A stretch of 64,000 nucleotides of DNA, taken from positions 1,920,001-1,984,000 of the forward strand of contig OY970296.1 of assembly GCA_963716175.1 (NCBI GenBank). Direction: 5' to 3'. Position numbers and translations under genes: made by a program. Within the stretch, counting starts at the first letter, position 1; the number at the start of each line of letters is the position of its first letter. This document shows, piece by piece, positions 14,793 through 55,263 of the stretch. The notes under the pieces were generated by a model that was given only the letters and a program-made list of their open reading frames with translations, was not told the origin of the DNA and did not search any database. Source of the stretch: an uncultured Armatimonadetes bacterium (GTDB lineage: Bacteria > Armatimonadota > Hebobacteria > Hebobacterales > Hebobacteraceae).

Positions 14793-16085
14793 TGTGCGGA
14801 CCGGTTACATGGGTAACGGATGTGCCGAGTACATAGGTAACACTTCTACTCCGCCTTCGGGCACTCCCCTAGTGTCAGGCGTTTGATCACCTGATGGCAG
14901 AAGAGCACCTCCACCAGGCCGTCGATATCAGTGGCGCGCACGGCCACCGGCTGACCGCGGAAGGCCTTGGAAACGGGCAGCAGACGCCCCCCGAAGTGCA
15001 CCTCGCCCCCACGCTGCACCTTGCGCACCGGCAGCCCCGGCGGGTACTGGATCGGCTCCAGCTGCGCGGGGTAGGCGCGCAGGCTGGGCTGGTAGCGACT
15101 TGCCGGCACCTCCAGCGCGAGCGCCTCGTGAGGGCGCAGGAAGTTATATTGCTCCCGCCACGGATCCAGGTGCGCCTGCAGGTGCTCCCCGTCTCGCCAC
15201 TGGTGCCGCGCCAGCAGCTCTCGCTGCAAGCTGCCATGGAAGCGTTCATCCTTGCCCACGGTCTGGGGATGGTAGGGCCGAGAGTGAGTCACGTATATCC
15301 CCAGCCGCATCAGCCACACCGCCAGCGCCCCATATGCGTCCGCGGCCAGATCTCCCCAGGGACCTCCATTGTCCGACAGCATCGCCTCCGGCACCCCATA
15401 GTGCCGGAAAGCGGCCACTAGCGCCGCCTGCACGGAGCACCCGTCCTGCTTGGGCAGCGCCTGCAGAGAGAGGGCAAAGCGAGAATGATCGTCCAGCACG
15501 CTCAGCACGTGCTGGGGACCCGTCTGCGTCGCTACCGGCGCCTTGAAGTCCATCTGCCAGAGGTCGTTGGGCAGTGGGCGCTCGAAACGCACCCAGGGGC
15601 GCTGACCCGCAGGCGAGTCCGCACCGATGAGCGCGTGCCGATGCAGGGTCGCGGTAATGGAGCTGGTGGCTGGCACGGGGTGGAGGCCCTGGTTGCGGAG
15701 CAGCCGGCGAAGCTTGCGGGCTCCCCAGCACGGGTGCGCCTGGCGGAGCGCCACGATTGCCTGCTGGGTGGCTGCCGGCAGTTGCGGGCGCCTCCGGTGG
15801 GGCCGGCGGGAGTGATCCCGCAAGCCCACTTCCCCGGCCTCAGCAAAGCGATAACACCATTTGTAGCCGATCCTGGGGCTGATGCCGAAGCGGCGGCACA
15901 GATCCCGAAACGGCACCCTCCCCTGCTGGGCGAACATCACAAACTCCCGTCGCTGCTGCTCCACGGTAACTGGCTCCCAGGGCATGGCCCCTCTCCTCTA
16001 GGAAGAGATGCATGCCTCTATAGTAACCGCTTGCCCGTTACCTATGTATCCGGTACGAGTGTTACCTATCTATCCAGTCTGTACA
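14793..16085 (-). mobile_element. IS481-family insertion sequence, copy 1 (1293 bp, 5-bp TSD CTCCC)
   Basis: TGT...ACA ends, two tandem ACATRGGTAAC-type units at each end, same length and translation as 53971-55263. Confidence 0.95.
14846..15985 (-). CDS. IS481-family DDE transposase
   Basis: MPW start, HTH, WQMDFK, LDDHSR, SDNG, HPQTVGKDERFH. Confidence 0.95.
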   Translation of the reverse strand: MPWEPVTVEQQRREFVMFAQQGRVPFRDLCRRFGISPRIGYKWCYRFAEAGEVGLRDHSRRPHRRRPQLPAATQQAIVALRQAHPCWGARKLRRLLRNQGLHPVPATSSITATLHRHALIGADSPAGQRPWVRFERPLPNDLWQMDFKAPVATQTGPQHVLSVLDDHSRFALSLQALPKQDGCSVQAALVAAFRHYGVPEAMLSDNGGPWGDLAADAYGALAVWLMRLGIYVTHSRPYHPQTVGKDERFHGSLQRELLARHQWRDGEHLQAHLDPWREQYNFLRPHEALALEVPASRYQPSLRAYPAQLEPIQYPPGLPVRKVQRGGEVHFGGRLLPVSKAFRGQPVAVRATDIDGLVEVLFCHQVIKRLTLGECPKAE

Positions 16086-16220
16086 CTCCCCCCTCGGCTG
16101 GAGTCGCTGCCTGGGGTTCGGTCATGGATAGTGGTCAGAACCGCGGGTCATTCTGCACTGGCCCGGGTCAGAGCAAGGCTGCGGCGGTCTCAGGGCGAAA
16201 TGACTACTTCAGGAGGTCTT

Positions 16221-19200
16221 GTGCAGGCCATGCGGAGTTCGACTGTCTTCCCCAGTTCCCGATGGCAATCCGCTCTGCGATGTGGTGTGTTCGCGCTGCT
16301 GGTCATCATGTTCGCCCTTGCTTCGGAGGTTGGAATGGCTGACGCTCTCCAGTCGCCTGGGAACGCCGCGCCCGCGCGCATCTGCCGCTGGTACGGCGGC
16401 AAGAAGGCAGCTGTGAGCCTGCGTTTCGATGACTCGGATCCCAGTCACATCGAGCAGGCCGTGCCGGCGCTGAACGAATACGACCTGATCGGCACCTTCC
16501 TGGTGAACCCCGGAACCGATGACTACCCTAGGCACAAGGCGGTCTGGGAGGGGCCGGTGCTCCAGCGCGGACACGAGCTGGGCAATCACACGATGAACCA
16601 TGCAGGCGCCGATGCGGACGAGGAGGCCGAACAGCAGATCGGCGGGGCGGCGGAGCTGCTCCACCGGCTGCAGCCTCGGCTGAAGCTGCTCGTCTTCGGG
16701 CCCGGGGGCGGGACCCGCTGGTTTCAGCGGAAGAGCCTGGAGTTCTTCGAGGCCAAGTATGGCCTGGTTTCCGCGGGCGAAGCCGCCAGTGGATGGGCGA
16801 TGTCGTGCACCGAGACATATTCGAGCTGGAGCGTTCCGCGGTTCGCCGCGGAACTGGAGCAGGCCGTGGCACAGGGGGTCTGGTTCCGGCCCTACTTCCA
16901 CGAGATCCGGGAACGGCCCGGCAGCCTGTCCATGAGGCCGGAGACCTTCCGGCAGGTTCTGGGTGTCGTGCAGGCCCATCGTGCCGACCTGTGGCAGGCC
17001 GGCATGAGCGCGATCCACCAGTACGAACGAGAGCGCCTCGAGGCGCACCTGTGGGTGCACGCCACCGGCGCGGACACCGTCGCCCTCTCTCTCACCTCCG
17101 CCACCGATGGAAGCCTGTACACGCAGCCACTCACGATCGAGGTGGACTTGCCGGCCGAGGCCGACACAGTGGCCGTGACCGCGGAGACGGGGGAGACGAT
17201 ACCGGCTCGCATCGAGCAGGCCGACGGACACCGGGTGGCGCGCTTCGAGGTACGCCCGGCTGACCTGACCTACATCGCCCGCGCGAGGGGTGTCGGCGTG
17301 CACTGCCGGACGGGGGAGATGAAGCCGCCGGGCACACACCCCTACCTCCTCTTCACCGCCGCCGAAGCGCCCGCGGTTCTCGGCAAGACGAGCGACCCGT
17401 TGGCGAAGACGATGTGGGAGATGATCCTGCGGGCGGCCGACTCCTTTGTGGCCGAAGCCAAGTCGGAGAACCCGAAGGACCTGGTGATGTGGGACTGGTC
17501 CCGCCGCATCGAGGTGCTCGGCCTGGCCTACTCCCTTACCCACAACGAGGCCTACGGCCGGGTCGGGGCGAGGTTCCTCCTGACCGCGGCGAGAGATGAC
17601 TCATGGCATGGCGGGAAGACGGAGATGCGCGTCACCGGCGAGGTCATGGGAACGCTTGGCCTGGGCTATGACTGGCTATACGACGCCCTCACGGCGGAGC
17701 AGCGCGCGGAGTTACGCGACGTCGTGGTACGGTACGGCCTGGAGCCGTTCGCGCACGTCGCCGCCACGGGCGACTTCTGGACGGACTGGTATCGCGGCAA
17801 CTGGGGCGCCGTCATCTACAGCAACGCGGGACTCGCGGCGCTATCCCTCCTCGGCGAGGAACCCAGAGCGGCCGACTGGGTGCGCCTGTGCGAGCGGAAG
17901 CTGTGGCGCTACACCATGGCGATGGGAGAGGACGGCGGCTGGGGGGAGAGCGTGAGCTACGGGTCCTATGCGTGGTCCAACGGGCTGAAATTCCTGCGCG
18001 CGCTGCGCCGCGTTACCGGGGACAATCTACTCGACAGCCCCAGACTGCGTCGGCTCCCCTACTGGTTCATCAACCTGCTGGACACCGATCGGCGGAACTA
18101 CGTTCCCTTCTCCAACTGCGGCCTGGGGGTGAGCGCGTCTCCGGAGGTGTTGGCTCTTCTGGCCGGTGAGTACCGCGATGGGCATGTCCAGTCCGCGGCC
18201 CAGGAGTTGCTGGCGCGCCGGGAGCGGGCGGCCGTCTTCGCCTTCCTTTGGTATGACCCGAAGGTCGAAGCCGCGGCTCTCTCCGAGTTGCCCCTCACCC
18301 AGGTGTGGCCCGACCTCGGCTGGGCGATCATGCGGAGTTCGTGGGATGACCCCAAGGGCGTGCTCTTTGGCCTCAAGGGCGGTCAGCAGGACTGGGATCA
18401 CCTCCATCACGACCTCAACAGCTTCGTGCTCTACGCCTACGGCAAGCCCCTGATCGCAGAGCTGTGGTACCCGATGCGGGTATGGGGCTGCGAGACCGAG
18501 GCGCACAACACGATCATGGTGGCCGGCAAGGAGCAGTACGGAGAAGTCGGCATCATGGGCCAGGGCAGCGCTCCGGACTCCTACCACCGCGGGATCATCG
18601 GAGATGCGCTCGACACCGGCGGCGAGGCGTTGCGCACGCCGTGGTACACGCGGCTGGTGGGCGATGCCTCGTTGGCCTATGAGCCGAGTGACGTGCAGAG
18701 CTTCGTGCGCGAGGTCATGTACCTCCGGCACGCCGTGCCGACCGATCCGGATGACTACTTCGTGATGCTCGATGACGTCAGGGCCACACACCCCGCGCGG
18801 ATGGATTGGATGCTGCACACCTATGGCGACATCATGGCGTCCGGCCGCACGTTCACGATCGTGCAGGATGATGCGGCTGTGGAGGTCACCATGGTGGCGC
18901 CCGAGGAGTTCGTGGTGGAGAACCACGAGAAAAGCCTGGAGGAGATCAAGGCGCCCAAGCCCTTCGAGTCGGCCCGCGCCCTGAAGTACATCAAGGTGCG
19001 GGCGGCACAGCCGGCGGACCGGGGATGCTTCCTGTCCGTACTGGCCCCCCGGACCACCTCGGCCCCGAGCGGCGCACGCGTCACGCCCCTTCGCCAGTCA
19101 GGCGTGGTAGGGGTCATCGTCGACTCGGGCGGGACGCAGGACGTGGCGCTGTTCGCGCTCGACCAGCCGCAAATAGTGGCGGCCGGTGTGGAGGCGGCGG

Positions 19201-19553
19201 GCCGCTCTTGCTTCGTCCGGAGGTCGGGCGGCCAGGTCACGGCGGCGGCCTTGCAGCGCGGTCAGCGGCTGACGGTCGACGGAGTGCTGCTCCTGGAGAA
19301 CGGCAGCATCGGTCACGCCGCGCTCCGCTTCACGGAGAAGGCCGTCACCGCGACCATGGAGCTGTACGACGGCGTCCCAGTGCGGGTACATGCCGCCCGA
19401 CGCCCGGCCCGAGTCCTGATTGATGGCCAGGAGCACGCGTTCGAGTACGATCCCGAGCGTCAGTGCGTCACGTTCATCGAGTACTACCCGGACGGGCCGC
19501 GCGCCAAGCCTGTCGCCGGGTATCTACGCGAGGTGCAAGTGGTGCTGCAGTGA
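16221..19553 (+). CDS. Secreted polysaccharide deacetylase fused to a heparinase II/III-like lyase
   Basis: AGGAGG RBS; LRFDD and HELGNHTMNH (NodB-like); DGGWGESVSY, HLHHDLNSF, TEAHNTI (Hepar_II_III). Confidence 0.85.
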   Translation: MQAMRSSTVFPSSRWQSALRCGVFALLVIMFALASEVGMADALQSPGNAAPARICRWYGGKKAAVSLRFDDSDPSHIEQAVPALNEYDLIGTFLVNPGTDDYPRHKAVWEGPVLQRGHELGNHTMNHAGADADEEAEQQIGGAAELLHRLQPRLKLLVFGPGGGTRWFQRKSLEFFEAKYGLVSAGEAASGWAMSCTETYSSWSVPRFAAELEQAVAQGVWFRPYFHEIRERPGSLSMRPETFRQVLGVVQAHRADLWQAGMSAIHQYERERLEAHLWVHATGADTVALSLTSATDGSLYTQPLTIEVDLPAEADTVAVTAETGETIPARIEQADGHRVARFEVRPADLTYIARARGVGVHCRTGEMKPPGTHPYLLFTAAEAPAVLGKTSDPLAKTMWEMILRAADSFVAEAKSENPKDLVMWDWSRRIEVLGLAYSLTHNEAYGRVGARFLLTAARDDSWHGGKTEMRVTGEVMGTLGLGYDWLYDALTAEQRAELRDVVVRYGLEPFAHVAATGDFWTDWYRGNWGAVIYSNAGLAALSLLGEEPRAADWVRLCERKLWRYTMAMGEDGGWGESVSYGSYAWSNGLKFLRALRRVTGDNLLDSPRLRRLPYWFINLLDTDRRNYVPFSNCGLGVSASPEVLALLAGEYRDGHVQSAAQELLARRERAAVFAFLWYDPKVEAAALSELPLTQVWPDLGWAIMRSSWDDPKGVLFGLKGGQQDWDHLHHDLNSFVLYAYGKPLIAELWYPMRVWGCETEAHNTIMVAGKEQYGEVGIMGQGSAPDSYHRGIIGDALDTGGEALRTPWYTRLVGDASLAYEPSDVQSFVREVMYLRHAVPTDPDDYFVMLDDVRATHPARMDWMLHTYGDIMASGRTFTIVQDDAAVEVTMVAPEEFVVENHEKSLEEIKAPKPFESARALKYIKVRAAQPADRGCFLSVLAPRTTSAPSGARVTPLRQSGVVGVIVDSGGTQDVALFALDQPQIVAAGVEAAGRSCFVRRSGGQVTAAALQRGQRLTVDGVLLLENGSIGHAALRFTEKAVTATMELYDGVPVRVHAARRPARVLIDGQEHAFEYDPERQCVTFIEYYPDGPRAKPVAGYLREVQVVLQ

Positions 19554-19917
19554 TGATCGCTTGGCCGGGGCCAAGAGAGCGGGTGGCACACCGGGAGTTC
19601 GTCCTCGGACGGCTGCGAGGCGCTCGCCACGTGGCGAGCCGTGCGGCAGGCGGCGAGGGTGTTGATGGAAGCAGATGGCCTGTCAGAGGGAGATCCCTAC
19701 TGCAAGTTGCGCCGGCGGACATCGGAACGTCGGGTCACGTTGAGAGTGGTGGCAGACGAGATCGTCACCGGCACCAGCAACGGCTGACCTAGCCCTGATC
19801 CCGGCGCTGCCGTCAGAACCGGTGCTGTGCACCCGGCTTCTGCGTGTGACGGGCGCTATATGCCTTGCCACAGGGCCGGTCACACGCGTTGGGCCCAACC
19901 CCACGAAGCATCCCGAG

Positions 19918-19985
19918 CGACGACCCGGGTATCCCCCGACTCCGGCTACCCCCTCGGCTTGGGGTCACTGCGCGCGGTTCCCCCG
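19918..19985 (+). repeat. Array repeat R6 (short)
   Basis: Core match; abuts the stop codon of the next gene. Confidence 0.85.
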
Positions 19986-19986
19986 C

Positions 19987-21312
19987 TTACCTGGCGCGCA
20001 CCACCGCTGCCCATTGTCCCGGGCCTGGCGCCTGCAAGCGTGCCGATCTGCCGGCCGCCGCCTGCGCTTCGCGGGTCCACTGGGCCTGGCCGATATCGTA
20101 CCAGCGGATGGTGGCACCGCCTGAGGAGCCCGTCACGTCGAGTTCTGCCGCGCCGCCATCAGTGAAGTACACGGCATACTCCAGGCCGGGCCGCGCCAGG
20201 CAGTAGGCAACATCGTCTCCGTCCGTATGCAGCAGGTCCTGTCGCGGCTCGCAGGCGAACACGTCCAGGGCTGCCGTCACCGCGCGAGCGCTTCGCATCA
20301 TCTGCTGGGCCATTTCGGTGAATGCGAGGTGCTTCTCATGGAACCGGGCAGAGGCCGCGCCCCCGATGATGTTCCGCCAGAAGCGCGCCATCCCGTCCTG
20401 GGCGGTGCCGAAGTACGTGTTGCCATAGATCTTCACATTGCTCAGCGGTCGAGGCCTGGCCGCGATGCGGTTGCGCACGTACTGGATCCCATCATAGTGG
20501 GCGCGACCGAACTGGAGGTTGTTCTGCGCCATCTCGATGTAGTCGAAGAGATCGGGCCGGTCAATCACGTGCAGGTGCTCGGGATCGCGCATATCCTTCG
20601 GGTCTCGCATTTCCGTGATGTAGACTGTCCTCCCGGCCTCTGCCGCCCGCTTCCGAACGTGCCGCGCCCAGTACTCTCCCCACTTGGGCGTCACCATGGT
20701 CTCGTTGTTCATACAGTACAGCACGTGGTCGTAGCGTAGGGTGTGAGCGAGCACTCGGTCAACAAACCTCTGCTGATAGCGCAGCACCTCCTTCAGATCG
20801 TGCTCCTCAGGGACGCTCCAGAAGAAGGTATTCTCGGCCTTCGAAGGTTCGCTGTCCACGACAGTCGGAAGCCCGGTGGTCTCAGCCGAGTAGTTTGTGT
20901 TGTTCGCCGGGTTGAACGGACTGACGCGCCAGGGATCGCGGTAGTAGTCGAAGGTGGCCCAGAGCTCGCAGTCGGTGACGATCCCTCGTGCCGCGGTTTC
21001 CCGCAGGAACAGCTCGAACCGGTCCCAGTACTCTTCGTTCCACTGATCCAGGTCGTAGCGGTCACCGACTCGGGCGAACGGATAACGGCCGGTCGTCTCC
21101 TGGCCAGACATCAAGCAGCGCGTCCAGTTGCCGCCGACCGCGACCAGGGCGTCGAGGTACTCCACCAGGTTCGGCAGGTGGAAGACACCAATATCGGCCA
21201 CCCCCTCCGCACGCGGCGACCCGCCTAGAAGCAGCATCGGCACTCCATCGAGCTGCCAGTAGTACCTGTTGCCGGGGTAGATGCTGACGCCTTGCTCGCG
21301 GCTAGTTGTCAC
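19987..21312 (-). CDS. Putative glycoside hydrolase with C-terminal collagen-binding-like domain
   Basis: YDLDQWNEEYWDRF, YCMNNE, C-terminal YAVYF...RWYD...APGPGQW. Confidence 0.65.
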   Translation of the reverse strand: MTTSREQGVSIYPGNRYYWQLDGVPMLLLGGSPRAEGVADIGVFHLPNLVEYLDALVAVGGNWTRCLMSGQETTGRYPFARVGDRYDLDQWNEEYWDRFELFLRETAARGIVTDCELWATFDYYRDPWRVSPFNPANNTNYSAETTGLPTVVDSEPSKAENTFFWSVPEEHDLKEVLRYQQRFVDRVLAHTLRYDHVLYCMNNETMVTPKWGEYWARHVRKRAAEAGRTVYITEMRDPKDMRDPEHLHVIDRPDLFDYIEMAQNNLQFGRAHYDGIQYVRNRIAARPRPLSNVKIYGNTYFGTAQDGMARFWRNIIGGAASARFHEKHLAFTEMAQQMMRSARAVTAALDVFACEPRQDLLHTDGDDVAYCLARPGLEYAVYFTDGGAAELDVTGSSGGATIRWYDIGQAQWTREAQAAAGRSARLQAPGPGQWAAVVRAR

Positions 21313-21569
21313 TTCCCCTCCCCCAGTCCATCTGGCATTGCCAGCATTGCCGATGATTCATGGCGCCGCCTGCGAGTCCCTTCTCAGCGAGTAGTGAGGA
21401 GAGCCGCTCCACCAGCCTAGAGCAGGACCGTCCAGAGGCCCCTTGGCGCCCAAGAACTCGCATGTGCGTGACCGGCAGGCGAACACGCGCTGAGTCACGG
21501 CCTGATGACGAGTCATGGTGATGCAGAGGACCAACAGGCCGTCGCCGCCTCTGCCCAAGCCAGGCCGCC

Positions 21570-21733
21570 AACGGCCCCGTGCACCCCCCGACTCCGGCTA
21601 CCCCCTCGGCGTGGAGTCACGGCCCGGGGCTCAGTCGTGGGTCGTCGTGCGACGGCGCGTCCCGGACACGCGGGCCGCAGCATTCCGGTTGGCGGCGTGA
21701 TGTCAGGCCGGCTTCGAGGGCGCCCGACACGGA
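21570..21733 (+). repeat. Array repeat R7 (full length)
   Basis: Core plus distal arm. Confidence 0.9.
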
Positions 21734-21768
21734 CACGTGGAGGCAGACGGCTCTCTGGACACTACGAA

Positions 21769-23798
21769 TCACTCGCTCTCAAGCGTCAAGAAGACGACGG
21801 AGTGTGCGGGGATCGTGCACGTTACGCGGGGACCTGCCAGCGTGACCGGCAGCTCTGTGATCGCGTCCTCCTTGCGCTGGAGCAGGGGCTTGCCGTCGAG
21901 GTCGTCGTTGCTCAGGAGGATGCCAGTGGCGCGGGCGGCGTCGAAGGTGCGCACGTTGAGGATGCAGGGCACGGCGCGATCCCAGGAGCCGTTGGCGACG
22001 ACGAGGTAGAGCGACTTCCTGTCCTGGCGGAGGGTGACCAGCGCGGGGGTCATGGGCCCGGCATAGTCGGTGGGCCTGTCGGAGAGGCCGTCGGCCGCGG
22101 ATGGGGTGTAGTATGGTGCCACGCCATCCATGTCGAGGGCCCACTCGCCGAGATGGCGGTTAAAGTAGTAGTAAAGCCAGTAGAGCATGAAGCGCTTGTC
22201 GGGCGCGTCTGGAGAGAGGATGCCGAAGCCCTGCTCTTTGCTCCTGGAGAGCATCTCCCAACCGCTCGCGCCACGCAGGATGTGCTCGCGGGCGTAGTAG
22301 ATGAGGCGCACGGCGCGGTGGAGAGTGCCGACGATGTTCGCGTTCCGATCGAACGCGTCCGCGACCTCGCCGTACGGGCCGGAGCTGATCATGCCCCACT
22401 CAGTGTCGTACTGGTAGACATCTCGACCTGGGTTGTAGGCGCGGATGAGAGCGTTGGTGCGCAGGATCAGGTCGAGCTTCTGGTAGTTCGCGGCGAGCAC
22501 GGGCACCTCGAGCGCGCGCTCTTGCAGCCGGTCGATACCGGAGTAGTAGTGGCCCACGACGAAGTCGTAGTGACCGGCGCACTGCTTCAGCACCGCGTTG
22601 CCCCAGGCCTGGCTCTCGGGGTCGACGGCGAGGCCGATCTGGGCAGAGGGCTGCACGGCGCGGATGGCGCGGCTGACCTCGATGAAGTGGTCGATGTAAG
22701 ACTGCGGGGTCGGGAAGGCCGTGCCCTCCCTCATCAGGTAGGGCTCGTTGGCGATCTCCCAGTAGCGGAAGCCGTAGCCCATGTTCACGGAGTGGCGGAC
22801 GCCTCGCGCCCACCGCTCGGGCGGGAGCTTACTGGTCGCGCCCTGGGTCTCGAACTCGAGCACGACGTGGTCCAGAGGCACGCCGACGCGGCGGCAGACT
22901 TCGGCGGCTCTGTCGATGGACTCCTCGACCGGGAACGGCTCATCGCCGACGGCGTAGAAGCGAGTCATGGGGAGGTGGAGGTCGCGGATCGCCTGCTCCA
23001 GCTCGGGCGCGAGGGTGTAGTCCCCCTTCTTGTCGTACGGCTGGCCGGTCCATCCGCAGACGCGGTGGAATGAGATGCCGCCGGCATCCTGGGTGGCGTG
23101 ACGCAGGGGCTTGCCAGCATCCACCGTGATTTCCAGGATGTCGCCGGGGCGCAATCGGTGCTGGAGCGGCGGGTACTTCAGTGCGGACTCATCTGCGAGG
23201 CGATCCTTCCGTGTGCTGGGCTCTTCGGTGACGACGATGTCGTCAACCCAGAGGGTGCGCTCGGCCCGTTGGTCGCGCGTGGCGTAGAACGCGAGCAAGA
23301 GATAGCGGCTCCGGTCGGCGAAGAAGTCCCAGCCCTCATGGAGGGTGAATCGGAAATGCTTCCATCGCTCATCTGCGGCGATGACGAAGTGGCCGGGGAC
23401 GCCGCGTCGATGAACGGGTGGATACTGGAGTAGGCCTCGAGACCGAAGTCCGACATCCCAGGCTGGTCCGCTCTGGCCCAGAAGGAAACAGTGTACATCA
23501 TGCTCCTGCGGGGGCGGATGGCGTGCTCGGGTGATGAGACGGTGTAGCCCTTGGTGCCAGCGGGATGATGGATGCGGAAGCAGGCCCTGCCGCGGTGGGG
23601 GTTGACGGTATCGAGGGTGTAGTTGCCCGGGATCTTGTACTGCCTCGCGCCCCACATGGCCCAGCCCAGCGGCGGCGCTTCCGGGGATGGGATCTCGAAA
23701 TCACCATTGTAGACGAGGTTCTGCGCGCAGTGGGCGGAGGTCCCGAGAACGAGGAGCAACAGACTAGCTGCCACAGCAGCAATGAGTCTCGAGTGCAT
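21769..23798 (-). CDS. Secreted CBM + GH51/GH39-like glycoside hydrolase (frameshift near 23400)
   Basis: Signal peptide + NLVYNGDFE CBM in one frame, continuing in another with YWEIANEP, DTEW and TIPAHSVVFL. Confidence 0.75.
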
Positions 23799-29192: not shown

Positions 29193-29375
29193 CTTGTGCG
29201 GACCGGATACAGATGCAAGAGCAGCAGGGAAGCCCTGGGCTCAGCAGAAGCGAAGCCCCCGTCTGGGCACGGGTGACCGCGGCGTGTGGTCTGCCTTGGC
29301 ACGGGGTTCCGGCCCGGCATCAGGAGGGGCTTCCTCCCAGCAATCAGTGCTCAGGAGCATGAGGAGGGTGTACAG

Positions 29376-32859: not shown

Positions 32860-33078
32860 AGCCGTTCGAGAACGCCCACCTGCTGCGCCACACCTTCATG
32901 CGCCTCTGGCGCATTCGCCACCCACGCCCTGCGCGCCCGGCCCAACCTGCGGGCGGTGCAGGAACTGCTGGGCCACGCCTGGGTGACCACGACCCAGCGC
33001 TACACTCACCTGGAGGTAGAGGACCTGCAGGCACAGCTGGCCGATCTCCCGGCCAACCGCTTACCGGGCGTCGGCTGA
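32860..33078 (+). pseudogene. Tyrosine recombinase (XerC/D-like) C-terminal remnant
   Basis: HLLRHTF | ATH...[22 protein letters not shown], frameshifted by a 19-bp hairpin insertion. Confidence 0.85.
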
Positions 33079-40351: not shown

Positions 40352-42081
40352 TGTACGTCGTCAGCGATTCTGGGACAAAGGCCAAGCTACAGGGTGAGCT
40401 GATCTGAGTCGGTGTTCCTGCTCCTGGGCGGCGAAATGTACAAGCGAGAAAGGAGCAGGGAGATGGAGGAATCGCTGAGGGCCGATGGCAGTGAGGGGCT
40501 AGAGCAACCGGTGGTGAGCCCGGGGCCGGCTCGCAAGCGAGGGGAGACCCCGCGGCAGCAGATGCTACTCTGCGAAGTAGCTTCGCTACGTAGCACGAGT
40601 CCGGAAGGCCAAGGGTGTCACCCGTCGGCACTTCACCGCCGAGGACAAGATCCGGATCGTGATGGAGGGCATCCAAGGGGAGATCCCGGTCTCGGAGCTG
40701 TGCCGGCGGGAGCGGCTGCACACCACGGTCTATTACCGCTGGCTCAAGGACTTCCTGGAGGGGGGCAAGAAGCGGCTGCGAGGGGATGTGCTGCGGGAGG
40801 CGGGTCGGGAGGAAGTGGCGGCGCTGAAAGAGGAGAATGCCCGGCTCAAGTGGCTAGGCGCAAGCGCCGCCATCCCGGTCCACAGGACCTAGGGACAGTT
40901 GGTGGCGGACTATGCCCTTGACCTGATGGCGCTCAAAAAAAGTCTGATGGCGGAGCGATGACCAAACAGCGCCGTCGGGAGATTGTGGAGCTGGTGGCCA
41001 AGTCACCCCATACGGTGGCGGCGACAGTGGCTGAGATCGGGGTCTCCAAGAGCAGCTTCTACCGCTGGCGCGCCCGGATTGAGTCCGGCTGGAGGCCCCG
41101 GCTGAAGAAGGCGGTCTGGAATGAGTTGCGCCCAGAGGAGCGCCAAATCGTGCTCCAGCAGGCTCTGGCGCAGCCCCACCTGAGCGCCCGGGAGCTGGCC
41201 TGGTGGCTCTGCGACCACGCCAATTTCAGCGTTTCTGAGTCCACCGTGGCGCGCCTCCTGAAGGCCCACGGGCTGCTGCCTAGGCGGGGCCCCGAGCAAG
41301 AGCCGGCCGGGAAGGAGTGGCGCCACAAGACCCGCCGCATCAACCAGATCTGGCAGAGCGACGCCACCCGCTTTTTCATCCCGGGCTGGGGCCACTACTG
41401 GCTGGTGTCGGTGCTCGACGATGGCTAGGCCTGCGGCCGCCATGGCGGTCACCCTCGGTGACCTAGCCACTACTCCCGGCGCCTGCTGGCCTGGGAACTG
41501 GTATCCGACATCCAGGCGGAGAGCCTGGTGGCGGTGATCCAGCGGGCAGTGGAAGTCACCGGGGTGACCGCAGCGCCCCTGGTGGAGCGGCCGGCGGTGC
41601 TCACCGACAATGGCTCAGGCTACATCGGCAAGGTGATGCAGAAGTACCTGAAGGCCCTGGACCTGCGCCATCTGCGAGCCCGCTCCCATCATCCCCAGAC
41701 CACCGGCAAGCTTGCCCGCCTCTGGCGGGATCGAGCGGGTGCACCGCACGCTGAAGGATGACGTGGAGCTGGTGGTGCGGATGAGCCCGGGCGAACTGCG
41801 GGCAGCGATCGCCCAGTTCGTGGCTTACTACAACTCCCAGCGCTACCACGAGGTTTACCCGCCTCTGGCGAGGCGCTGCACAACGTCACCCCGGACGACG
41901 TCTGGTTCGGCCGCAGGGAGGAGATTCTGGCCCGGCGAAGAGCGCTCCAGATCCGCACCGTGATCGCGCGCCGGGAACGCTACCGCCGGCTGAGGGGCCA
42001 GTGCAAGAATACAAGAGCGGGAACACCGGAGGTGTAGCTAACGCAAGACCCCTCTTGTCCCAGTCACGCTGACGCCGGACA
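40352..42081 (+). mobile_element. Inactivated IS3-family element
   Basis: IRs TGTACGTCGTCAGCGATTCTGGGACAA / TTGTCCCAGTCACGCTGACGCCGGACA; orfA FTAEDKIRIV; AAAAAAAG slip site; WQSD, TDNG, IER; five micro-insertions. Confidence 0.88.
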
Positions 42082-47529: not shown

Positions 47530-47660
47530 CTCAGTGCTCTCGCGTTCATCCGGTCACTCGCGAGCGGCTCCCCATTCTGATCGTGGTCTCCGGCGGCGCG
47601 CACGCGCGCCTGGCTCTCTGGCGCGCGTTGGGGCGTTCTCGTTGCCTTCCACACCAGTTG

Positions 47661-48293
47661 TCACCGCAGGGGGTGGGTCCAAGCGACGTTCAGTATGACC
47701 AGATTCGATTCGCTGCGTGTATTCGGCAAAGCGTAAGCTAGATTCACAGCCACACCCGGGCGAATCTCATGGTAGATACCAAGACCCCTGTAGCCGACAG
47801 ACCAGCTGGCGCAATCCGCGAGCAGGTAGTCCTTCTCTCCGATCTGCTTGTCGACCCCGAATAGCGTCGCCCTGCTTCCCCCGGACGCTGCGCCGCCGAA
47901 GTGCAATCTCAGGCCCCGCCCTATGTCCTTCGTCGCAACCAGGTAGCTCGTTGGCGGGAAGCCAGACCCGAGTTCCATACAGCCAACCGCCACCGCCGGC
48001 CGCCCGTGCTTCTCCGAGCAGGCAAGCCACTTTCCGTTGAATACGATGTCATTCGATGAGCCGACTGAGTACAGGTCAGCTCCCAGCTCGAGTCGCGGAT
48101 TCTGTGCGTATTCGAGCAACATGCAGCTCTCAGCTGCTGGACCGAACAGGTGTGGGGCCCCGTCATTTTCGAGTTCGATTCTCAGGTTGCCGACCTCCAG
48201 CATGTCGGCCGTGGGGATGATGTTCGACGAGGTCGGAAAGCCCCAGACGACCGTTGTCGTCGTCAAGAGCGCGAGAGCGACGAGCAATCTCAT
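47661..48293 (-). CDS. Exported beta-strand-rich hypothetical protein (YjbH-like)
   Basis: Signal peptide; NIIPTADML; PAVAVG. Confidence 0.55.
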   Translation of the reverse strand: MRLLVALALLTTTTVVWGFPTSSNIIPTADMLEVGNLRIELENDGAPHLFGPAAESCMLLEYAQNPRLELGADLYSVGSSNDIVFNGKWLACSEKHGRPAVAVGCMELGSGFPPTSYLVATKDIGRGLRLHFGGAASGGSRATLFGVDKQIGEKDYLLADCASWSVGYRGLGIYHEIRPGVAVNLAYALPNTRSESNLVILNVAWTHPLR

Positions 48294-48400
48294 TCCCGCT
48301 CCTGTTCCTGGCAACAGCAGTTCCGGCGGCGGCTGTTCGATCCCCCAGGTCCGAGGCGCCGGATATGGGGGAAGACGCACGAACGCTGTTAAGGCGCTTG

Positions 48401-48766
48401 CTACTCGTTGAGAAGAACGGCCAGGACCTCCGATACCATTTTGGAGTCGAAAGGCTTCAGCAGGCAAAGGCCAGCGCCAGCGGACAAGGCCTCACCCACA
48501 CGCTCGTCATGCGCCGAAGCCGTGATCATGACGAAGGTCGCCTTCGGGAGGACCGGGCGGATCGCTCGAAGGACCTCGAGTCCGTCCAGTTCGGGCATCT
48601 TGATATCGAGTAAGACGACATCGAACGCTTGGCTACGGGCCGCGAGGATGCCGAGTCGAGGCGATGTGTGAGTGGTCACCTGATGGCCCTGCTTGGTCAG
48701 AATGTCGCTGAGCAGTGTGCAGACGATCTCGTCATCATCGACCACCAGCGCCTTCAGCGAACGCAT
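48401..48766 (-). CDS. Single-domain response regulator
   Basis: LVVDDD, LLDIKMPELDG, KPF. Confidence 0.92.
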   Translation of the reverse strand: MRSLKALVVDDDEIVCTLLSDILTKQGHQVTTHTSPRLGILAARSQAFDVVLLDIKMPELDGLEVLRAIRPVLPKATFVMITASAHDERVGEALSAGAGLCLLKPFDSKMVSEVLAVLLNE

Positions 48767-49103
48767 GTTCCCCTCTTTCCCGAGTAGACTGGGCCACTAC
48801 CGTATTCATCTTCATCCACTTAACCATTCTCTGATTCCATACCTGAGCCCCAGGATGACGTCAACTGGCGACGAAACCCCGTGGGTGTGTCACGTCGTTG
48901 AGACACTGATTCCTAGGCAGATGCGGGCTTTGCTGACCTCAGAGGCGCGGGCACGGGAACGACACAGCCGTGGGGATGGGACGGCGATCATAGAGCTGGC
49001 AACGCCTACCAGGGCGCGGCCGGGGGCCCGGAGTCGCGAGGCGCGGCAGAGCGCGTTTCGAAGCGCACGAGTCCCTACCAAACGTCCCTGGCATCGAACT
49101 CCC

Positions 49104-49216
49104 GAAGCCGTCCGATGCGGAGAAGTTTCGATGACAGCAACATTCCCTCCACCACTTGGGAATTGAACTCCGGTCTGGCGGCCCCCCGTTCCCAGGTCAG
49201 CTCCTCGATGGCGATA
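49104..49216 (+). repeat. 113-bp direct repeat, copy 2
   Basis: Near-identical to 42447-42559. Confidence 0.85.
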
Positions 49217-49320
49217 GCCGCTGTTGTCGGCCTAGCGCCAGAACTGGCGTTATCGGCCCAGAACGAGCGTTCCCCGTCGAGACGGATGCAGCGCAAGGGG
49301 GTGGGTCAGTTTCCGATGAA

Positions 49321-50717
49321 CTATCATAGAAGCGGCTTGCCCTCGCGGTGCCGAATCAGAGGCCTGACCGATAGCCTCAGAGGAGGACAAGCCAGAGATG
49401 CTCTATGTGGGATTGGATGTGCACAGCCAGTGGACCACGCTCCGGGGCTTCGATCCCGAGACCGGCGAGATCGTGGAGCGTGCGCGCATCAGCAATGAGC
49501 CGGAGGTGATGGCCGTCGTGCTCGGGGAGCTGCCCGGCCCTTTGCACGGGGTGATGGAGACGGGAACCAATGCCTGGTCCATGTATCGCGTGCTGAAGCC
49601 CTACTTCGCCCGCCTGGTGATCGCGGACCCGGCGCAGTTGTGGGATCGCAAGCGGGATCGTAGTGCGAAGACGGATCGGCGAGATGAGATGCCCTGCGCA
49701 TGGCGCAGAAGCTGTATCGGGAAGAGATCAAGGGGATCTATGTACCGGACGAGCATACCCAGGATCTGCGGGTATTGGTGCGGGGCAAGGTGCGAGCGAC
49801 CCGGTGGGTGACGAAGCTGGTGAACGAGATCGGATCGTTGTTGCGGTGCTGGGGGGAGGTCGAGTCCAAGAGCCTGCTCTCGAAGCGGGGGAAGGACCAC
49901 TTGGACGCCGCGCAGTTGCCGGGACATTCGGCGCGGGTGCTGGAGCTGTGGCGAGAGATGCTGGAGAAGGCGCAGGAGATCGAGGCGGAGCTGGAGGTGG
50001 CGATCAAGGAAGAGGCCGAGCGTGACGCGGTTTGCGCGCAGTTGCGCACGATGCCCTCGGTAGGGCCCTTCACCGCGTTGGCGGTGCGAGCCGAGATCGG
50101 CGACATTCGACGCTTCCCCAGTTCGGCGGCATTGATCTCCTATGCCGGCCTGGCACCACGCGTCTTCCAGAGCGGAGAGCACTGCCGCTATGGGCCCTTG
50201 GGACACCGGGGCAATCCCTGGCTGCGGTACGCACTGGGCCTGCTGGCGAACCGGATGGCCTGCCAGGGCAAGGGCAGTCGCCTGCATCAGCGCTACTGGC
50301 GGATCCAGCTGCGGGGGCATCGCAATGGCGCCAAGATGGCCGTGGCGCGAAAGGCCACGCATCTGATCTACCATCTCTTGCGCACCGGGCAGCCGTGGCG
50401 GGAACTGGCACCGGAGGAGCACGTGCAGGTCACGGTTTGATCGCGAGCGGCTGGAGCTCGCACCCTTGGCGGGAGCACTCCCCCTCAATCGGCTAGCCGC
50501 GCAGACGGCTCTCGATGAACTGGGAGGCTCCCCATCCGCGACGATAGCATGCGCCCCGGAGCGCCGATAGCGAACTCGCGAGAAACCAGCCGCGCACAGA
50601 TCCTGGGCGAGCCACGGCGGGCTCCACCACAGCGGGGGTTCCGCCCTTGCGGCTCGCGGAGAACGCATGTGACGTGAGGAAAGAAGGCACTGATGAGGAC
50701 TTGACGCCGCTTCTATA
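49321..50717 (+). mobile_element. IS110-family (IS1111-type) element
   Basis: Subterminal IRs ATAGAAGCGGC (49326) / GCCGCTTCTAT (50706); ~280-bp non-coding 3' end. Confidence 0.85.
49398..50440 (+). pseudogene. IS110 recombinase frameshifted by a GAGAT duplication at 49681-49690
   Basis: YVGLDVH, METG, KTDRRD, SYAGLAPRVFQSG, AVARK. Confidence 0.88.
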
Positions 50718-51111
50718 GCGCGCCGATTGACAGTCCGTTGCGCCCGGCGTCTCCCACTTCGTCCCAGACCCACTCGATTGGACCAGGCTGGCGCGGATGT
50801 ACAGCCTCCTCGAAGGGTACGGCAAGGGCAACCGAGTGGAGACGGTCGCGGTCGGAAGGGGTGCTTTCCTGGTTCCCCGGTCGGTGCCGGTGCCCTCGCT
50901 TCCCTAGCGGGGATAGGCGACCGCATTCGCGGGCACTGCCCCACAGCTCTGTGCAGATCACTCAGCGTGCTGATGAGCGATGCCAACGACCAACCGGCCC
51001 GCGGTGCCGGATCCCACACCCAGCCTCCCCGGCTCGTCCGGCCCGCTTCCCATACCCCTGCGGCCGCCGGGGTGGAATGCGCCGGTGAGGGGGCGGCCGA
51101 GTTGGCGGCCG

Positions 51112-53460
51112 TTACATCGGCAACTCGAACGCGCGCTGCACATATGCCGCCATCTGGTCCCGGGTCACTTGCGCGCTGGGCCGGTAGGTGCCGTCGTCGT
51201 AGCCCTGCACCACGTCGTTCTCCACGCAGGCCTCGACCGCGGTGCCGGCCCAGAACCCGGCCGGCACATCCGGGAACAACTCCGGCGCCGTGTCCATCGG
51301 CTCCCCCAGCTTCACCCACCCCAGGGCGCGGGCGATGAACACAGCCATCTGCCCCCGGTCCACCACCACCTCCGGCCGGTAGTGGGTGGAGTCGTAGCCG
51401 GCCACCACCTCGCGGCTCACCGCGTACTCGATGTACTCGTAGGCCCAGTGGGTGCTTGGCACATCGTCCGGGAACGAGACCTGAGCGGGGCTGGTAGGGA
51501 CATGCTCCTCCCCGCCGGCCAAGGCCCGCGAGATGTAGACTGCCATCTGGTCGCGGGTGACCGGGAGGTCGGGCTGATAGCTAGCATCCGGATAACCCCC
51601 GACGATGTGGGCAAGGGCGCAGGCTCCGATCTGATCGTAGGCCCAATGGTCAAACGGCAAGTCCGCGAACCAAGGGACCCGAAAGCGGACCATCTGACCG
51701 TTCTCGGTGTCCGTTACCCACACAGAGTCATCGTTCGGATTCACGCACACGGATCTCGGGCCAACAAGGTCCCCTCCTCGCCACAGTTCAGCGCCGCTTG
51801 CCGCCAGATGAACGAGTTGGCTGTTCTCCTTGTCGGCCACCCAGCAGGAACCATTTGTCCAGTTGGCCGAGAGTGCCACGAACCCGGTTGCCGCGTAGCC
51901 GCTTCCTCTCCACAGCTCGCTGCCGTCCGAGGCAAGATGCGCGATCCCGTTGGCGTCCACGATCCAGCAGGAGCCGTCGCTGGCGTTGACCGCAACGAAC
52001 CGGGCACCGGATCCCTGCCACAGGATCACGCCGTCGCGTGATAGGTGGACGAGTTCGCCGCCTGCCACCCAGCAGGAGCCGTCCACTGGGTTGACGGAGA
52101 CGGAGACGGGACTGCTGAAGCCGGCTCCTCGCCAGAGTTCCGTTCCGTCGGGAGCCAGGCGCACCACCTCGCTGGTTGACGCAATCGTCCAGCATGAGCC
52201 ATCGGTCGGATCCACGGCGAGGCGCGTTCCGGAGTATGGGACCGGAGGAGGGCCGCCTCGCCACAGCTCGTCACCATTCTGCGCCAGATGGACAATCTGG
52301 TGGTGCAGGTCATCAGCAACCCAGCAAGAGCCATCCGCCGGGTTCGCTGACACATCGTCTGGCTCGTAGAAGTCTCCTCCCCGCCAGAGTTCAGCCCCAT
52401 CCGCCGCGAGATGCACAACCTGGTCGTTGGAGGTATCGGCTACCCAGCACGAGCCATCCGTGGGGTTGACGGACACGGCCTCAGGCCAGTTGCAGCCGCT
52501 GCCCCGCCACAGTTCGGCCCCGTTCGCCGCAAGATGCACGATCTGGTTCTGGCCCACGTTGGCCATCCAGCAGGATCCGTCTTGCGGGTCTGAGGATACG
52601 GACACGGGGCCGAAACCCATTGCCTGCCACAGTTCCTCGCCGCTCTCGCTCAGGAGCAGAATCTGCCGGTGGTATTCGTCGCCGACCCAGCAGGACCCGT
52701 CGACCGGGTTCACTGCTACGCAGTAGGTCGGGGAGAGGCCGCCGCTCCACAGCTCGGCACCGTTTGCCGCTAGGTGCTTGATGTGGGCACCTCCGACCCA
52801 GCAAGATCCGTCCGTGGCGTTGACGCTGACGGAGGAGGCACGGCCATCTACTCGCCACAGCTGTGTCCCGTTGGCGTCCAGGTGTGTGATGCCAGTAGAA
52901 TCCCCAACCCAGCAAGAGCCATCGGCTGAGTTCACGCAGACCGACTTTGGTGCAGGGAATCCAGGGCCTCGCCACAACTGCGACCCGTTCGCAGCCAGGT
53001 GCACCACCTCGTCGCTGCCCCAGCTAGCCACCCAGCAGGAGCCGTCCGAGGGGTTTGCGGACACCGCCATGGGATAGGTGAAGCCCTCCCCTCGCCACAG
53101 CTCAGAACCATCTGCCGCCAGATGCACCACCTGATTGTGGTAGGTGTCAGCCACCCAACATGACCCATCCGTCGAGTTGGCCGAGACCGAGGTAGTAAAG
53201 GCCTCGCCATCCGGGCCGAGCCAGATGGCATTGCGGAACCCATTGGTCTGACTCAGGATCACACCGCTGTCGGCTAGATGCATCACGCTGTTCCCAGTGG
53301 CCGCCCAGCACGAGCCATCCGTGCGGTCCAGCGACACTGCGAGAGGGGTTCCGAACGGGCTGCGCCAGGCCTCGATGACTTCTTCGGCTGGTGCAGGACA
53401 GGCCGCAAGGCAGAGGATGAAGCAGAGTGTAAGGCCGAGCAGCAGGCGACGCGTTCTCAT
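51112..53460 (-). CDS. Secreted NHL-like repeat beta-propeller with three SLH domains
   Basis: About 14 repeats of VSVNPxDGSCWVAD...HLAAxGxELW; SLH tail. Confidence 0.88.
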   Translation of the reverse strand: MRTRRLLLGLTLCFILCLAACPAPAEEVIEAWRSPFGTPLAVSLDRTDGSCWAATGNSVMHLADSGVILSQTNGFRNAIWLGPDGEAFTTSVSANSTDGSCWVADTYHNQVVHLAADGSELWRGEGFTYPMAVSANPSDGSCWVASWGSDEVVHLAANGSQLWRGPGFPAPKSVCVNSADGSCWVGDSTGITHLDANGTQLWRVDGRASSVSVNATDGSCWVGGAHIKHLAANGAELWSGGLSPTYCVAVNPVDGSCWVGDEYHRQILLLSESGEELWQAMGFGPVSVSSDPQDGSCWMANVGQNQIVHLAANGAELWRGSGCNWPEAVSVNPTDGSCWVADTSNDQVVHLAADGAELWRGGDFYEPDDVSANPADGSCWVADDLHHQIVHLAQNGDELWRGGPPPVPYSGTRLAVDPTDGSCWTIASTSEVVRLAPDGTELWRGAGFSSPVSVSVNPVDGSCWVAGGELVHLSRDGVILWQGSGARFVAVNASDGSCWIVDANGIAHLASDGSELWRGSGYAATGFVALSANWTNGSCWVADKENSQLVHLAASGAELWRGGDLVGPRSVCVNPNDDSVWVTDTENGQMVRFRVPWFADLPFDHWAYDQIGACALAHIVGGYPDASYQPDLPVTRDQMAVYISRALAGGEEHVPTSPAQVSFPDDVPSTHWAYEYIEYAVSREVVAGYDSTHYRPEVVVDRGQMAVFIARALGWVKLGEPMDTAPELFPDVPAGFWAGTAVEACVENDVVQGYDDGTYRPSAQVTRDQMAAYVQRAFELPM

Positions 53461-53970
53461 CCGACCCGCCTCTGACGTCAGAGTCCGCGCAGGGCGCGGT
53501 ACTGCTGGAGAGGAACCGAACTGCTGATGCCCCATACCACGCGGCACTCAGTTCGCCTGCTGCTAGTGCCTGAGATGGCACCCAGGAACGACCTCACAAC
53601 CCAGAGGGGACAGTGTCTGGCTGTCACACGGGCTTGAGGCATCCGCTTCGCGGCACATGTCAGCCCTCTGCACCTGAGAGCAGGAGTGAAGGACCGCGCC
53701 GACGCTGAGAACAGATCAGGAACTCGGGCCTGTCGGGATCGTGGTTAGCAGAGCGATGGATGAAGACGCGGGGTGGACCCGGGCCCCACGCCGTGAGATG
53801 ACCACGGGCGCCCTTGCAGGAGAGTCAGGCTACTAGCCGGTAGGCGGTGATACCGGTGTCGGCAGCGACGCGTCGCTCGAGATGGCGTGCGAGAGTGTTG
53901 GCTGGCTTCTCAGGTTCAGTCCGCTCTTCGACGTGACGAAGGCCCCGGGCACCCCCCGACTCCGGCTCCC

Positions 53971-55263
53971 TGTGCGGACCGGTTACATGGGTAACGGATG
54001 TGCCGAGTACATAGGTAACACTTCTACTCCGCCTTCGGGCACTCCCCTAGTGTCAGGCGTTTGATCACCTGATGGCAGAAGAGCACCTCCACCAGGCCGT
54101 CGATATCAGTGGCGCGCACGGCCACCGGCTGACCGCGGAAGGCCTTGGAAACGGGCAGCAGACGCCCCCCGAAGTGCACCTCGCCCCCACGCTGCACCTT
54201 GCGCACCGGCAGCCCCGGCGGGTACTGGATCGGCTCCAGCTGCGCGGGGTAGGCGCGCAGGCTGGGCTGGTAGCGACTTGCCGGCACCTCCAGCGCGAGC
54301 GCCTCGTGAGGGCGCAGGAAGTTATATTGCTCCCGCCACGGATCCAGGTGCGCCTGCAGGTGCTCCCCGTCTCGCCACTGGTGCCGCGCCAGCAGCTCTC
54401 GCTGCAAGCTGCCATGGAAGCGTTCATCCTTGCCCACGGTCTGGGGATGGTAGGGCCGAGAGTGAGTCACGTATATCCCCAGCCGCATCAGCCACACCGC
54501 CAGCGCCCCATATGCGTCCGCGGCCAGATCTCCCCAGGGACCTCCATTGTCCGACAGCATCGCCTCCGGCACCCCATAGTGCCGGAAAGCGGCCACTAGC
54601 GCCGCCTGCACGGAGCACCCGTCCTGCTTGGGCAGCGCCTGCAGAGAGAGGGCAAAGCGAGAATGATCGTCCAGCACGCTCAGCACGTGCTGGGGACCCG
54701 TCTGCGTCGCTACCGGCGCCTTGAAGTCCATCTGCCAGAGGTCGTTGGGCAGTGGGCGCTCGAAACGCACCCAGGGGCGCTGACCCGCAGGCGAGTCCGC
54801 ACCGATGAGCGCGTGCCGATGCAGGGTCGCGGTAATGGAGCTGGTGGCTGGCACGGGGTGGAGGCCCTGGTTGCGGAGCAGCCGGCGAAGCTTGCGGGCT
54901 CCCCAGCACGGGTGCGCCTGGCGGAGCGCCACGATTGCCTGCTGGGTGGCTGCCGGCAGTTGCGGGCGCCTCCGGTGGGGCCGGCGGGAGTGATCCCGCA
55001 AGCCCACTTCCCCGGCCTCAGCAAAGCGATAACACCATTTGTAGCCGATCCTGGGGCTGATGCCGAAGCGGCGGCACAGATCCCGAAACGGCACCCTCCC
55101 CTGCTGGGCGAACATCACAAACTCCCGTCGCTGCTGCTCCACGGTAACTGGCTCCCAGGGCATGGCCCCTCTCCTCTAGGAAGAGATGCATGCCTCTATA
55201 GTAACCGCTTGCCCGTTACCTATGTATCCGGTACGAGTGTTACCTATCTATCCAGTCTGTACA
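53971..55263 (-). mobile_element. IS481-family insertion sequence, copy 2 (1293 bp, TSD CTCCC)
   Basis: Same ends, length and translation as copy 1. Confidence 0.95.
54024..55163 (-). CDS. IS481-family DDE transposase
   Basis: Same 379-aa protein as 14846..15985. Confidence 0.95.
   Translation of the reverse strand: MPWEPVTVEQQRREFVMFAQQGRVPFRDLCRRFGISPRIGYKWCYRFAEAGEVGLRDHSRRPHRRRPQLPAATQQAIVALRQAHPCWGARKLRRLLRNQGLHPVPATSSITATLHRHALIGADSPAGQRPWVRFERPLPNDLWQMDFKAPVATQTGPQHVLSVLDDHSRFALSLQALPKQDGCSVQAALVAAFRHYGVPEAMLSDNGGPWGDLAADAYGALAVWLMRLGIYVTHSRPYHPQTVGKDERFHGSLQRELLARHQWRDGEHLQAHLDPWREQYNFLRPHEALALEVPASRYQPSLRAYPAQLEPIQYPPGLPVRKVQRGGEVHFGGRLLPVSKAFRGQPVAVRATDIDGLVEVLFCHQVIKRLTLGECPKAE

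Follow-up and report, generated by a model that had tools for sequence, protein, structure and literature searches.

An IS481-family insertion sequence occupies a single position of a palindromic repeat in an uncultured Armatimonadetes bacterium

The window analysed here is a stretch of 64,000 nucleotides from an uncultured Armatimonadetes bacterium (assembly GCA_963716175.1, contig OY970296.1, positions 1,920,001 to 1,984,000), and it carries two copies of an insertion sequence (IS), each of which interrupts a short palindromic repeat. The contig, called C1 below, is the only contig of this genome, with a length of 4.56 Mb and a completeness given as 90.85%. Both IS copies are 1293 bp long, with the transposase gene on the minus strand: copy A lies at 14793..16085 and copy B at 53971..55263. 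Alignment of 14693-16185 with 53871-55363 showed that the copies are identical across 1293/1293 bases and that their outer flanks diverge. Searching the whole genome with the IS DNA returned seven matches, namely four full-length copies and three partial ones. The full copies beyond the window were found at C1:1904479 (+) and at C1:1725520 (-, with a single nucleotide polymorphism). Because the full copies differ by only 0-1 base, the activity of the element is recent. Three of the copies (C1:1904479, 1934793 and 1973971) are identical, stand in direct orientation and are spaced by 30 and 39 kb, and directly oriented copies 30-39 kb apart are substrates for rearrangement, that is, for deletion or duplication of the genes between them.

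A single open reading frame (ORF) of 379 aa (14846..15985, minus strand, in copy A; 54024-55163, minus strand, in copy B) fills the element and leaves no space for accessory genes. The encoded transposase matched the NCBIfam model of the IS481 family (NF033577) with 261.2 bits, above the cut-off of 224, over profile positions 1-284 of 284. Its score of 105 bits on the IS3 model was under the cut-off of 160, and its scores on the IS21 and IS630 models were under their cut-offs too. Pfam domains rve, rve_3, HTH_32, HTH_28 and LZ_Tnp_IS481 were identified in the protein, and D146, D205 and E247 were invariant among 10 aligned sequences (this protein and nine relatives at 44-85% identity), as expected for the Asp-Asp-Glu (DDE) triad; these residues are the predicted catalytic ones. 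The layout is equally that of an IS481 element, with one ORF and no IS3-type two-ORF frameshift arrangement, imperfect inverted repeats led by TGT and a short direct duplication of the target. Imperfect terminal inverted repeats starting with TGT are named as a trait of the family in the available sections of two papers (10.1101/2022.12.17.520857; PMC11406308).

Both window copies end in TGT...ACA. The terminal inverted repeats of copy A (14793..14841, +, with TGT; 16037..16085, -, the ACA end) are 49 nt long and 73% complementary, and within each end of the IS lie two 12-nt units of TACATRGGTAAC, 24 bases apart, that look like transposase-binding sites. These units are at 14806-14817 and 14830-14841 and at 16037-16048 and 16061-16072 in copy A, and at 53984, 54008, 55215 and 55239 in copy B, giving eight matches in the window against 0.04 expected. 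An earlier reading of the window from the sequence alone (the sequence-only reading) had reported two 1293-bp copies with different outer flanks, TGT...ACA termini with two units in each end, and one transposase gene with neither TniQ nor TnsC, all of which we recovered. Its description of the ends as being of the Tn7/Tn5053 type holds for the site-like units in each end and for the 5-bp duplication, and does not extend to membership of that group.

All four full copies (4/4) share one insertion nucleotide and one orientation relative to a GC-rich palindromic repeat of about 70 bp. Each has a 5-bp duplication on both sides, reading CTCCC at copies A and B and CTACC at the two copies outside the window; since the two sides of each copy match while the copies differ from one another, the duplication is a copy of the local target. 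Target duplications in the IS481 family range from 4 to 15 bp. The repeat has three complementary arm pairs. The inner pair, with GACTCC as left arm and GGAGTC as right arm, encloses a spacer of 17 bases; the duplicated 5-mer takes up bases 3-7 of this spacer, leaving 2 bases between it and the left arm on the 3' side of that arm. At copy A the left half of the interrupted repeat (14758..14792, +, start approximate) ends with this arm (AACTCC here), GG and the duplicated 5-mer (14788..14792), a placement with which the 5-base joint ambiguity of the empty-site contigs described below agrees. The right half (16086..16132, +), recognised by its flanks and by an nhmmer match to model positions 43-90, includes the right duplication (16086..16090), as placed by flank comparison and the empty-site contigs. 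Comparison of the flanks put the duplications of copy B at 53966..53970 and 55264..55268, with the right half of the repeat extending to about 55310. An insertion would meet such a site by chance at a rate of about 1e-5 (some 79 equivalent sites among 9.1 million position-and-orientation states).

The claim that both window copies share the orientation, the nucleotide of the repeat core and the CTCCC duplication was therefore upheld, and it extends to 4/4 copies genome-wide. Its companion, that this site is the stem/loop junction of a core hairpin, stood in part: the insertion is in the spacer near the left arm, but the hairpin is a palindrome of the sequence only, without covariation. The variable base of the target was A in 58, G in 13, T in 2, C in 1 and a gap in 1 of the 75 near-full-length uninterrupted repeats, as the same reading had indicated in saying that most uninterrupted copies carry another base than the occupied window sites. 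The C variant is thus found at 2/4 occupied sites versus 1/75 empty repeats (Fisher p = 0.006), the other two copies using the common A variant, which is suggestive of a preference of the element for the C variant. The string CTCC, present both in the C variant and in the second site described below, may hint at a preferred core.

Contigs from four public metagenome runs (X1, X4, X5 and X6), which belong to four studies, were aligned on window positions 14400-16500. In runs X4 and X6, from two studies, one contig each joins 14787 to 16086 and skips 1298 (1293 + 5) bases; five bases at the joint fit either side, and the shorter side of the alignment measures 57 and 77 bases in the two contigs, respectively. 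An unoccupied allele of the copy A site exists in natural populations, and the joint of 1298 bases confirms a simple insertion with a 5-bp duplication. Depth over the IS was about 40-75 versus 5-12 for the flanks in these two runs, and the element is therefore multicopy in the populations sampled by X4 and X6. Among the loose contig ends, one in X5 shows the flank of the second site described below and one in X1 shows the repeat's right half.

The three partial matches in the genome are two ends of an older copy, 89-94% identical to the active element and now 17 kb apart. The flanks of this copy again belong to the repeat, here oppositely oriented; the junction falls within the right arm and the duplication near ACTCC, so that a second position in the repeat has been used. 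A 17-nt match to the IS terminus (16/17 positions) at 29195..29211 (+) lies directly against the right arm of a repeat that is intact apart from it; this match is probably a solo-end remnant at the second position. Scanning metagenomes, we found three relatives at 83-85% protein identity. Both of those with readable flanks (L098 and L122; 2/2) lie in the same repeat family at the second position, in opposite orientations and with degenerate duplications. Counted over both positions, the repeat thus holds at least eight independent insertions of this lineage. As a sister lineage uses another position of the same repeat, the specificity is for the repeat, and the exact site is specific to the lineage. 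The 8-mer CCGGCTAC (window 14784-14791), which in A-variant repeats begins shortly ahead of the duplicated 5-mer and runs into it, also occurs in the first site-like unit of the older copy's end (C1:1041763) and matches the end of the active copy at 7/8 bases. Mimicry of the IS end by the target was considered on this ground and was kept as an idea only, since a rough count gave about what chance allows.

A profile search with nhmmer found 102 hits to the repeat, 71 on the plus and 31 on the minus strand, of which 75 are near full length. The hits are restricted to a few regions, with 51/102 in 1.9-2.1 Mb. They are co-oriented in each region irrespective of the strand of neighbouring genes, usually with one to a few genes between them, and crude gene calls place them mostly in intergenic DNA. 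Their share of the genome is about 0.15%, and roughly one quarter of the modelled region is non-coding. The arms are conserved, but no covariation was detected in the three arm pairs, observed pairing being the same as shuffled pairing, and RNAalifold gave a stem of only 3 bp. We therefore claim no folded structure, and 'hairpin' here denotes a sequence palindrome. Cumulative GC skew reaches its lowest point near 1.14 Mb. The repeats at 0.7-1.1 Mb are on the minus strand, and most of those at 1.6-2.3 Mb are on the plus strand (exceptions at 1.7 and 2.05 Mb). The orientation of the repeats may therefore be tied to the direction in which the chromosome is replicated, although the skew is noisy.

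We counted 66 occurrences of the repeat core in this genome and 43 and 14 in two genomes from a different genus within the same family; none of the 28 other genomes searched had more than two. With the IS DNA as query, 60 related genomes gave only short weak matches in five, and so no added insertion sites; the match in one of the repeat-bearing relatives (G011) is a single weak one of 51 nt at 82% identity, too short for a copy. The repeat is present in a genus where the IS was not found, and we therefore regard the repeat as resident and the IS as a later arrival. An origin of the repeat from the IS, in the manner of a miniature inverted-repeat transposable element, was rejected on the same observation and because intact repeats contain no IS sequence. 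In being a short, imperfect, extragenic palindrome with many copies the repeat resembles repetitive extragenic palindromic (REP) sequences. The genome-wide dispersal of REPs and their association with a REP-associated tyrosine transposase (RAYT) were not seen, the hits being regional and co-oriented and the five weak Y1_Tnp matches in the genome adjoining none of the repeats. Given this regional clustering and the lack of an adjacent RAYT, we call the repeat REP-like only. Integron attC arrays were also rejected as an identity, because the best TIGR02249 match, at 90 bits, fell short of the cut-off of 265 and the edges of the arrays carried no hit.

Beyond this lineage, the closest relatives of the transposase in 185,579 species genomes have at most 54% identity and come from many phyla. 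We compared relatives at 44-55% identity, among them the named elements ISRm20 of Sinorhizobium meliloti (48%) and ISEc19/yagA of E. coli K-12 (44%). The conserved termini TGT-N3-G-N-CYGG could be located at both ends in 63/80 genome loci; of 80 metagenome loci, 34 did not yield both ends, 11 had flanks that were too short and 35 were usable. A palindrome was scored where a stem of at least 8 matched bases bracketed the insertion, with one mismatch allowed and a loop of up to 18 bases. Such stems were present at the insertion in 30/63 genome loci versus 62/2400 control positions in the same loci, and stems of at least 10 in 22/63 versus 11/2400. Equally, 24/35 metagenome loci had a stem of at least 8, versus 6/310 controls. 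The choice of GC-rich palindromes is thus inherited across IS481 relatives in many phyla, and targeting of this kind is known from other families of jumping genes.

The flanks of these 98 sites were C-rich on the left and G-rich on the right in 51, the reverse in 1 and neither in 46. A strand bias of the relatives' insertions was dropped as a measure, as this class of palindrome reads alike on both strands; the C-first class was therefore compared with background palindromes in the same loci, of which 42 were C-first, 20 G-first and 119 mixed. In the 34 distinct sites whose duplication measures 5 bp, enrichment of C spans positions -3 to -15 and that of G spans +3 to +11. Duplications in the full set were of 5 bp (34 sites), 6 bp (13), 4 bp (3) or longer (4), were absent or short in 35, and were replaced by perfect inverted flanks in 9. 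In L019, L052 and L055 the duplication itself forms the loop, and in the ISRm20 copy examined the 5-bp duplication is the loop of a 9-bp hairpin that lies within a dispersed repeat. Of the 14 relatives inspected, 12 have in both ends a pair of direct units of about 16 nt with a spacing of 23 bases, and the other two have such a pair in one end; two-unit ends of this kind are found in ISRm20 and ISEc19 too. The E. coli ISEc19/yagA copy lacks one terminal unit and is therefore taken to be truncated.

At the inverted-flank sites (L082, L121, L133, L140, L143, L144, L149, L161 and L166, and also L173) the flanks are perfect reverse complements up to TGT/ACA, and there is no direct duplication. They may have arisen as assembly chimeras, through recombination between copies that sit in palindromes of opposite orientation, or by an unusual mode of integration. 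With an artefact of palindromic contigs in mind, the extent of the complementarity was examined: it is local (9-42 nt) in most of these loci, but reaches 130 nt in L143 and takes in the whole 48-nt flank in L144.

Taken together, we consider it very probable that this is a recently active IS481-family element of an ISRm20/ISEc19-like subgroup whose single DDE transposase chooses its own target. A stand-alone DDE element that selects the repeat had been proposed by the sequence-only reading, and the proposal is supported by the 4/4 site, the empty allele, the remnants, the relatives at 83-85% identity and the palindrome habit in many phyla. Tabulating the flanks of all copies, as that reading had suggested, we found no copy in this genome outside the repeat. 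Several observations weigh the other way. There are just four full copies here, and agreement of orientation in 4/4 alone has p = 0.125 by chance. The main site fits the pattern of C-tract and G-tract seen in the relatives less well than the second site does. Two contigs, in runs X4 and X6, carry the IS terminus (the 14793 junction) after 30 left-flank bases that are not recognisable as the repeat, and off-repeat insertions may therefore occur in related populations. Among the relatives, 33/63 genome sites and 11/35 metagenome sites fall under the stem threshold, and 35/98 sites have no or only a short direct duplication.

How the target would be read can be sketched from the two-unit ends and the relatives' sites. 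Four transposase protomers would bind the 2 + 2 predicted units and so pair the ends, and the resulting two-fold symmetric complex would capture a duplex with a C-tract 5' and a G-tract 3' of a short centre. The target would be read as the sequence or the shape of this symmetric site, and a finer sequence readout in the present lineage would determine which base is cut and which way round the element lies. The insertions themselves show a 5-bp stagger at CTNCC, 2 bases beyond the left arm on its 3' side, and always one orientation. Copy-out-paste-in transposition is used by the IS3-family cousins of IS481.

A different possibility, and in our judgement a rather unlikely one, is that the transposase recognises a DNA structure, either an extruded hairpin or cruciform or a single-stranded hairpin at the replication fork, and not the duplex sequence of the arms. 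The targets across lineages do share their palindromic form more than their sequence, and the duplication is the loop in several relatives (the three loci given above and ISRm20). The inverted-flank sites without a direct repeat (9/98) could stem from non-canonical integration into a hairpin. Also in keeping with a structure readout, the repeats keep a common orientation for hundreds of kb and change it across the cumulative GC-skew minimum. We nevertheless prefer a readout of sequence or shape, because C-first outnumbers G-first 51 to 1 at insertions as against 42 to 20 in the background, the enriched C and G positions keep constant distances to the cut, the main site does not lie at the centre of the spacer and the arms of the repeat show no covariation; the exact base and orientation are, moreover, fixed in this genome. 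A stronger form of the structural account, which we hold to be somewhat less likely again, would make the ISRm20/ISEc19-like subgroup, which is found in many phyla, a structure-guided guild, in which a four-site transpososome recognises the apex of extruded C-first hairpins or cruciforms and the inverted-flank sites (9/98) are footprints of integration into a folded target. If true, comparison within this guild would offer a natural way of learning how DNA structure is read by a simple DDE transposase.

Insertion at random, with survival only of those copies that land in harmless intergenic repeats, is very improbable as a source of the pattern. The repeats are indeed mostly intergenic, and purifying selection against insertions in genes is general. 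Selection of this kind cannot, however, yield the same nucleotide and orientation in 4/4 copies, and the repeats make up about 0.15% of a genome of which roughly a quarter of the modelled part is non-coding. The copies are identical, so there has been little time for selection.

We give slightly less credence still to a scenario with no targeting by the transposase, in which one insertion spread to other repeat copies as the halves of the repeat on its two sides underwent homologous recombination or gene conversion. Each side of the IS carries about 35-45 bases of a dispersed repeat, and co-conversion would explain why the rare CTCCC is found at two occupied sites and in 1/75 empty ones. The two CTCCC copies, however, already diverge from each other 12-13 bases left of the IS and 14 bases right of it, so that any conversion tract would have had to end within at most 14 bases of homology. 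Two copies carry CTACC, and conversion can produce neither the second position of the remnants and the sister lineage nor the insertions of relatives from other phyla in unrelated palindromes. That the two window copies are an assembly artefact is improbable in the extreme, for although identical multicopy elements are a classic cause of misjoins and completeness is 90.85%, the outer flanks of each copy are unique and its 5-bp duplications match, both junction regions are reached by independent contigs, and an empty-site contig agrees with the outer flanks. Misassembly and gene conversion were also the origins that the sequence-only reading had set against its own claim, and in this genome neither fits well, the junctions being bridged by independent contigs and the conversion tracts having to be no longer than 14 nt.

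Insertion sequences that target REPs are established as a kind. The survey of Tobes and Pareja (2006; PMC1525189), in the part of its text available, defines as type 1 those with all copies at one repeat position, in families IS3, IS110, IS4, IS256 and IS5; its examples are ISPsy8 (IS3), ISPa11, ISPpu9, ISPpu10 and ISRm19 (IS110), and ISRm22 (IS4). In these, every full copy (100%) occupies one and the same repeat position, which allowed a target consensus to be drawn, and imperfect duplications were explained by recombination between copies. The present element shows the same type 1 association, with 4/4 full copies in the repeat at one position. The available text of the survey contains no mention of IS481. 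Our literature search, whose scope left out subscription journals and ISfinder notes, found no paper on insertion of IS481-family elements into REPs or other palindromes; it likewise found none on the target choice of ISRm20, the matches concerning ISRm2011-2 instead. As far as searched, REP targeting is thus undescribed in print for the IS481 family.

The closest analogues are IS1397 and ISKpn1, IS3-family elements that insert in the palindromic units (REPs or bacterial interspersed mosaic elements) of E. coli and Klebsiella, according to the available part of the same survey (PMC1525189). Like them, the present element has an rve-type DDE transposase, TGT ends and a short duplication, and occupies a fixed position in a short intergenic palindromic repeat, the targeting being attributed to the transposase itself. 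IS1397 and ISKpn1 insert into the loops of palindromic units. Unlike them, the present element is a single-ORF IS481-type element with a 5-bp duplication and two site-like units per end. Its target is a longer and different repeat that is regionally clustered and co-oriented, and the habit is common to its relatives in many phyla. It resembles ISRm20 and ISEc19 in its two-unit ends and, for the ISRm20 copy, in a hairpin-loop site, but the hosts and the target repeats differ. Members of IS110 are now described, in the literature available in part, as using bridge RNAs; unlike these, the present element is a DDE/rve element and is too small for a bridge RNA.

With elements of the Tn7/Tn5053/Tn402 type it shares the TGT/ACA termini (PMC11406308, in the section available) and, by sequence, what appear to be several transposase-site-like repeats per end. 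Unlike these, it has one gene in 1293 bp, with no TnsC/TniB ATPase and no TniQ/TnsD selector, and only two units per end. The target duplication of the Tn7/Tn5053/Tn402 type is 5 bp, as here.

To our knowledge, the way in which a single-protein DDE transposase locates a REP-like palindrome has yet to be explained, even for the classic IS1397. The present case adds two positions in one repeat, an empty allele, a controlled test across phyla, the C-first rule and conserved two-unit ends. The lineage offers natural contrasts, namely one repeat with two positions that are each used by a sister element, possibly a preferred base variant, an empty-site allele, and dozens of relatives with different palindromic targets and the same two-unit ends. 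Landing in intergenic repeats would spare genes and let the element persist, a safe-haven strategy. For annotation, IS481-family copies flanked by the halves of a palindrome are to be read as targeted insertions and not as chance ones. Palindromic repeats in little-studied phyla are likewise landing pads that concentrate mobile DNA and the substrates of rearrangement in particular regions.

An example of an uninterrupted repeat of the A variant, identified by nhmmer and alignment, lies at 11489..11572 (+), and further uninterrupted repeats found by nhmmer in the window, all on the plus strand, start near 7006, 9900, 13326, 19906, 21566, 25705, 27405, 29146, 29993, 31764, 44141, 56373, 58428 and 59980. 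The co-oriented arrays (window 7006-60033; C1 0.7-2.3 Mb) look cassette-like, and no integron integrase was found. Segments bounded by repeats have been duplicated: one of about 855 bp, encoding a small Gly-rich secreted protein, is present three times (C1:1949188, 2026275 and 2258972), and the repeat rows at 1964141 and 2089493 are identical, flanks included. Short C-terminal fragments of tyrosine recombinases lie inside the arrays at window 32890-33015 and at C1:2027222-2027422, 2102539-2103061 and 2113812-2113943. A different element is represented at window 40970-41852 by a degraded IS481-like reading frame, which contains one TGA and one TAG and scores 101 bits on the IS481 model.

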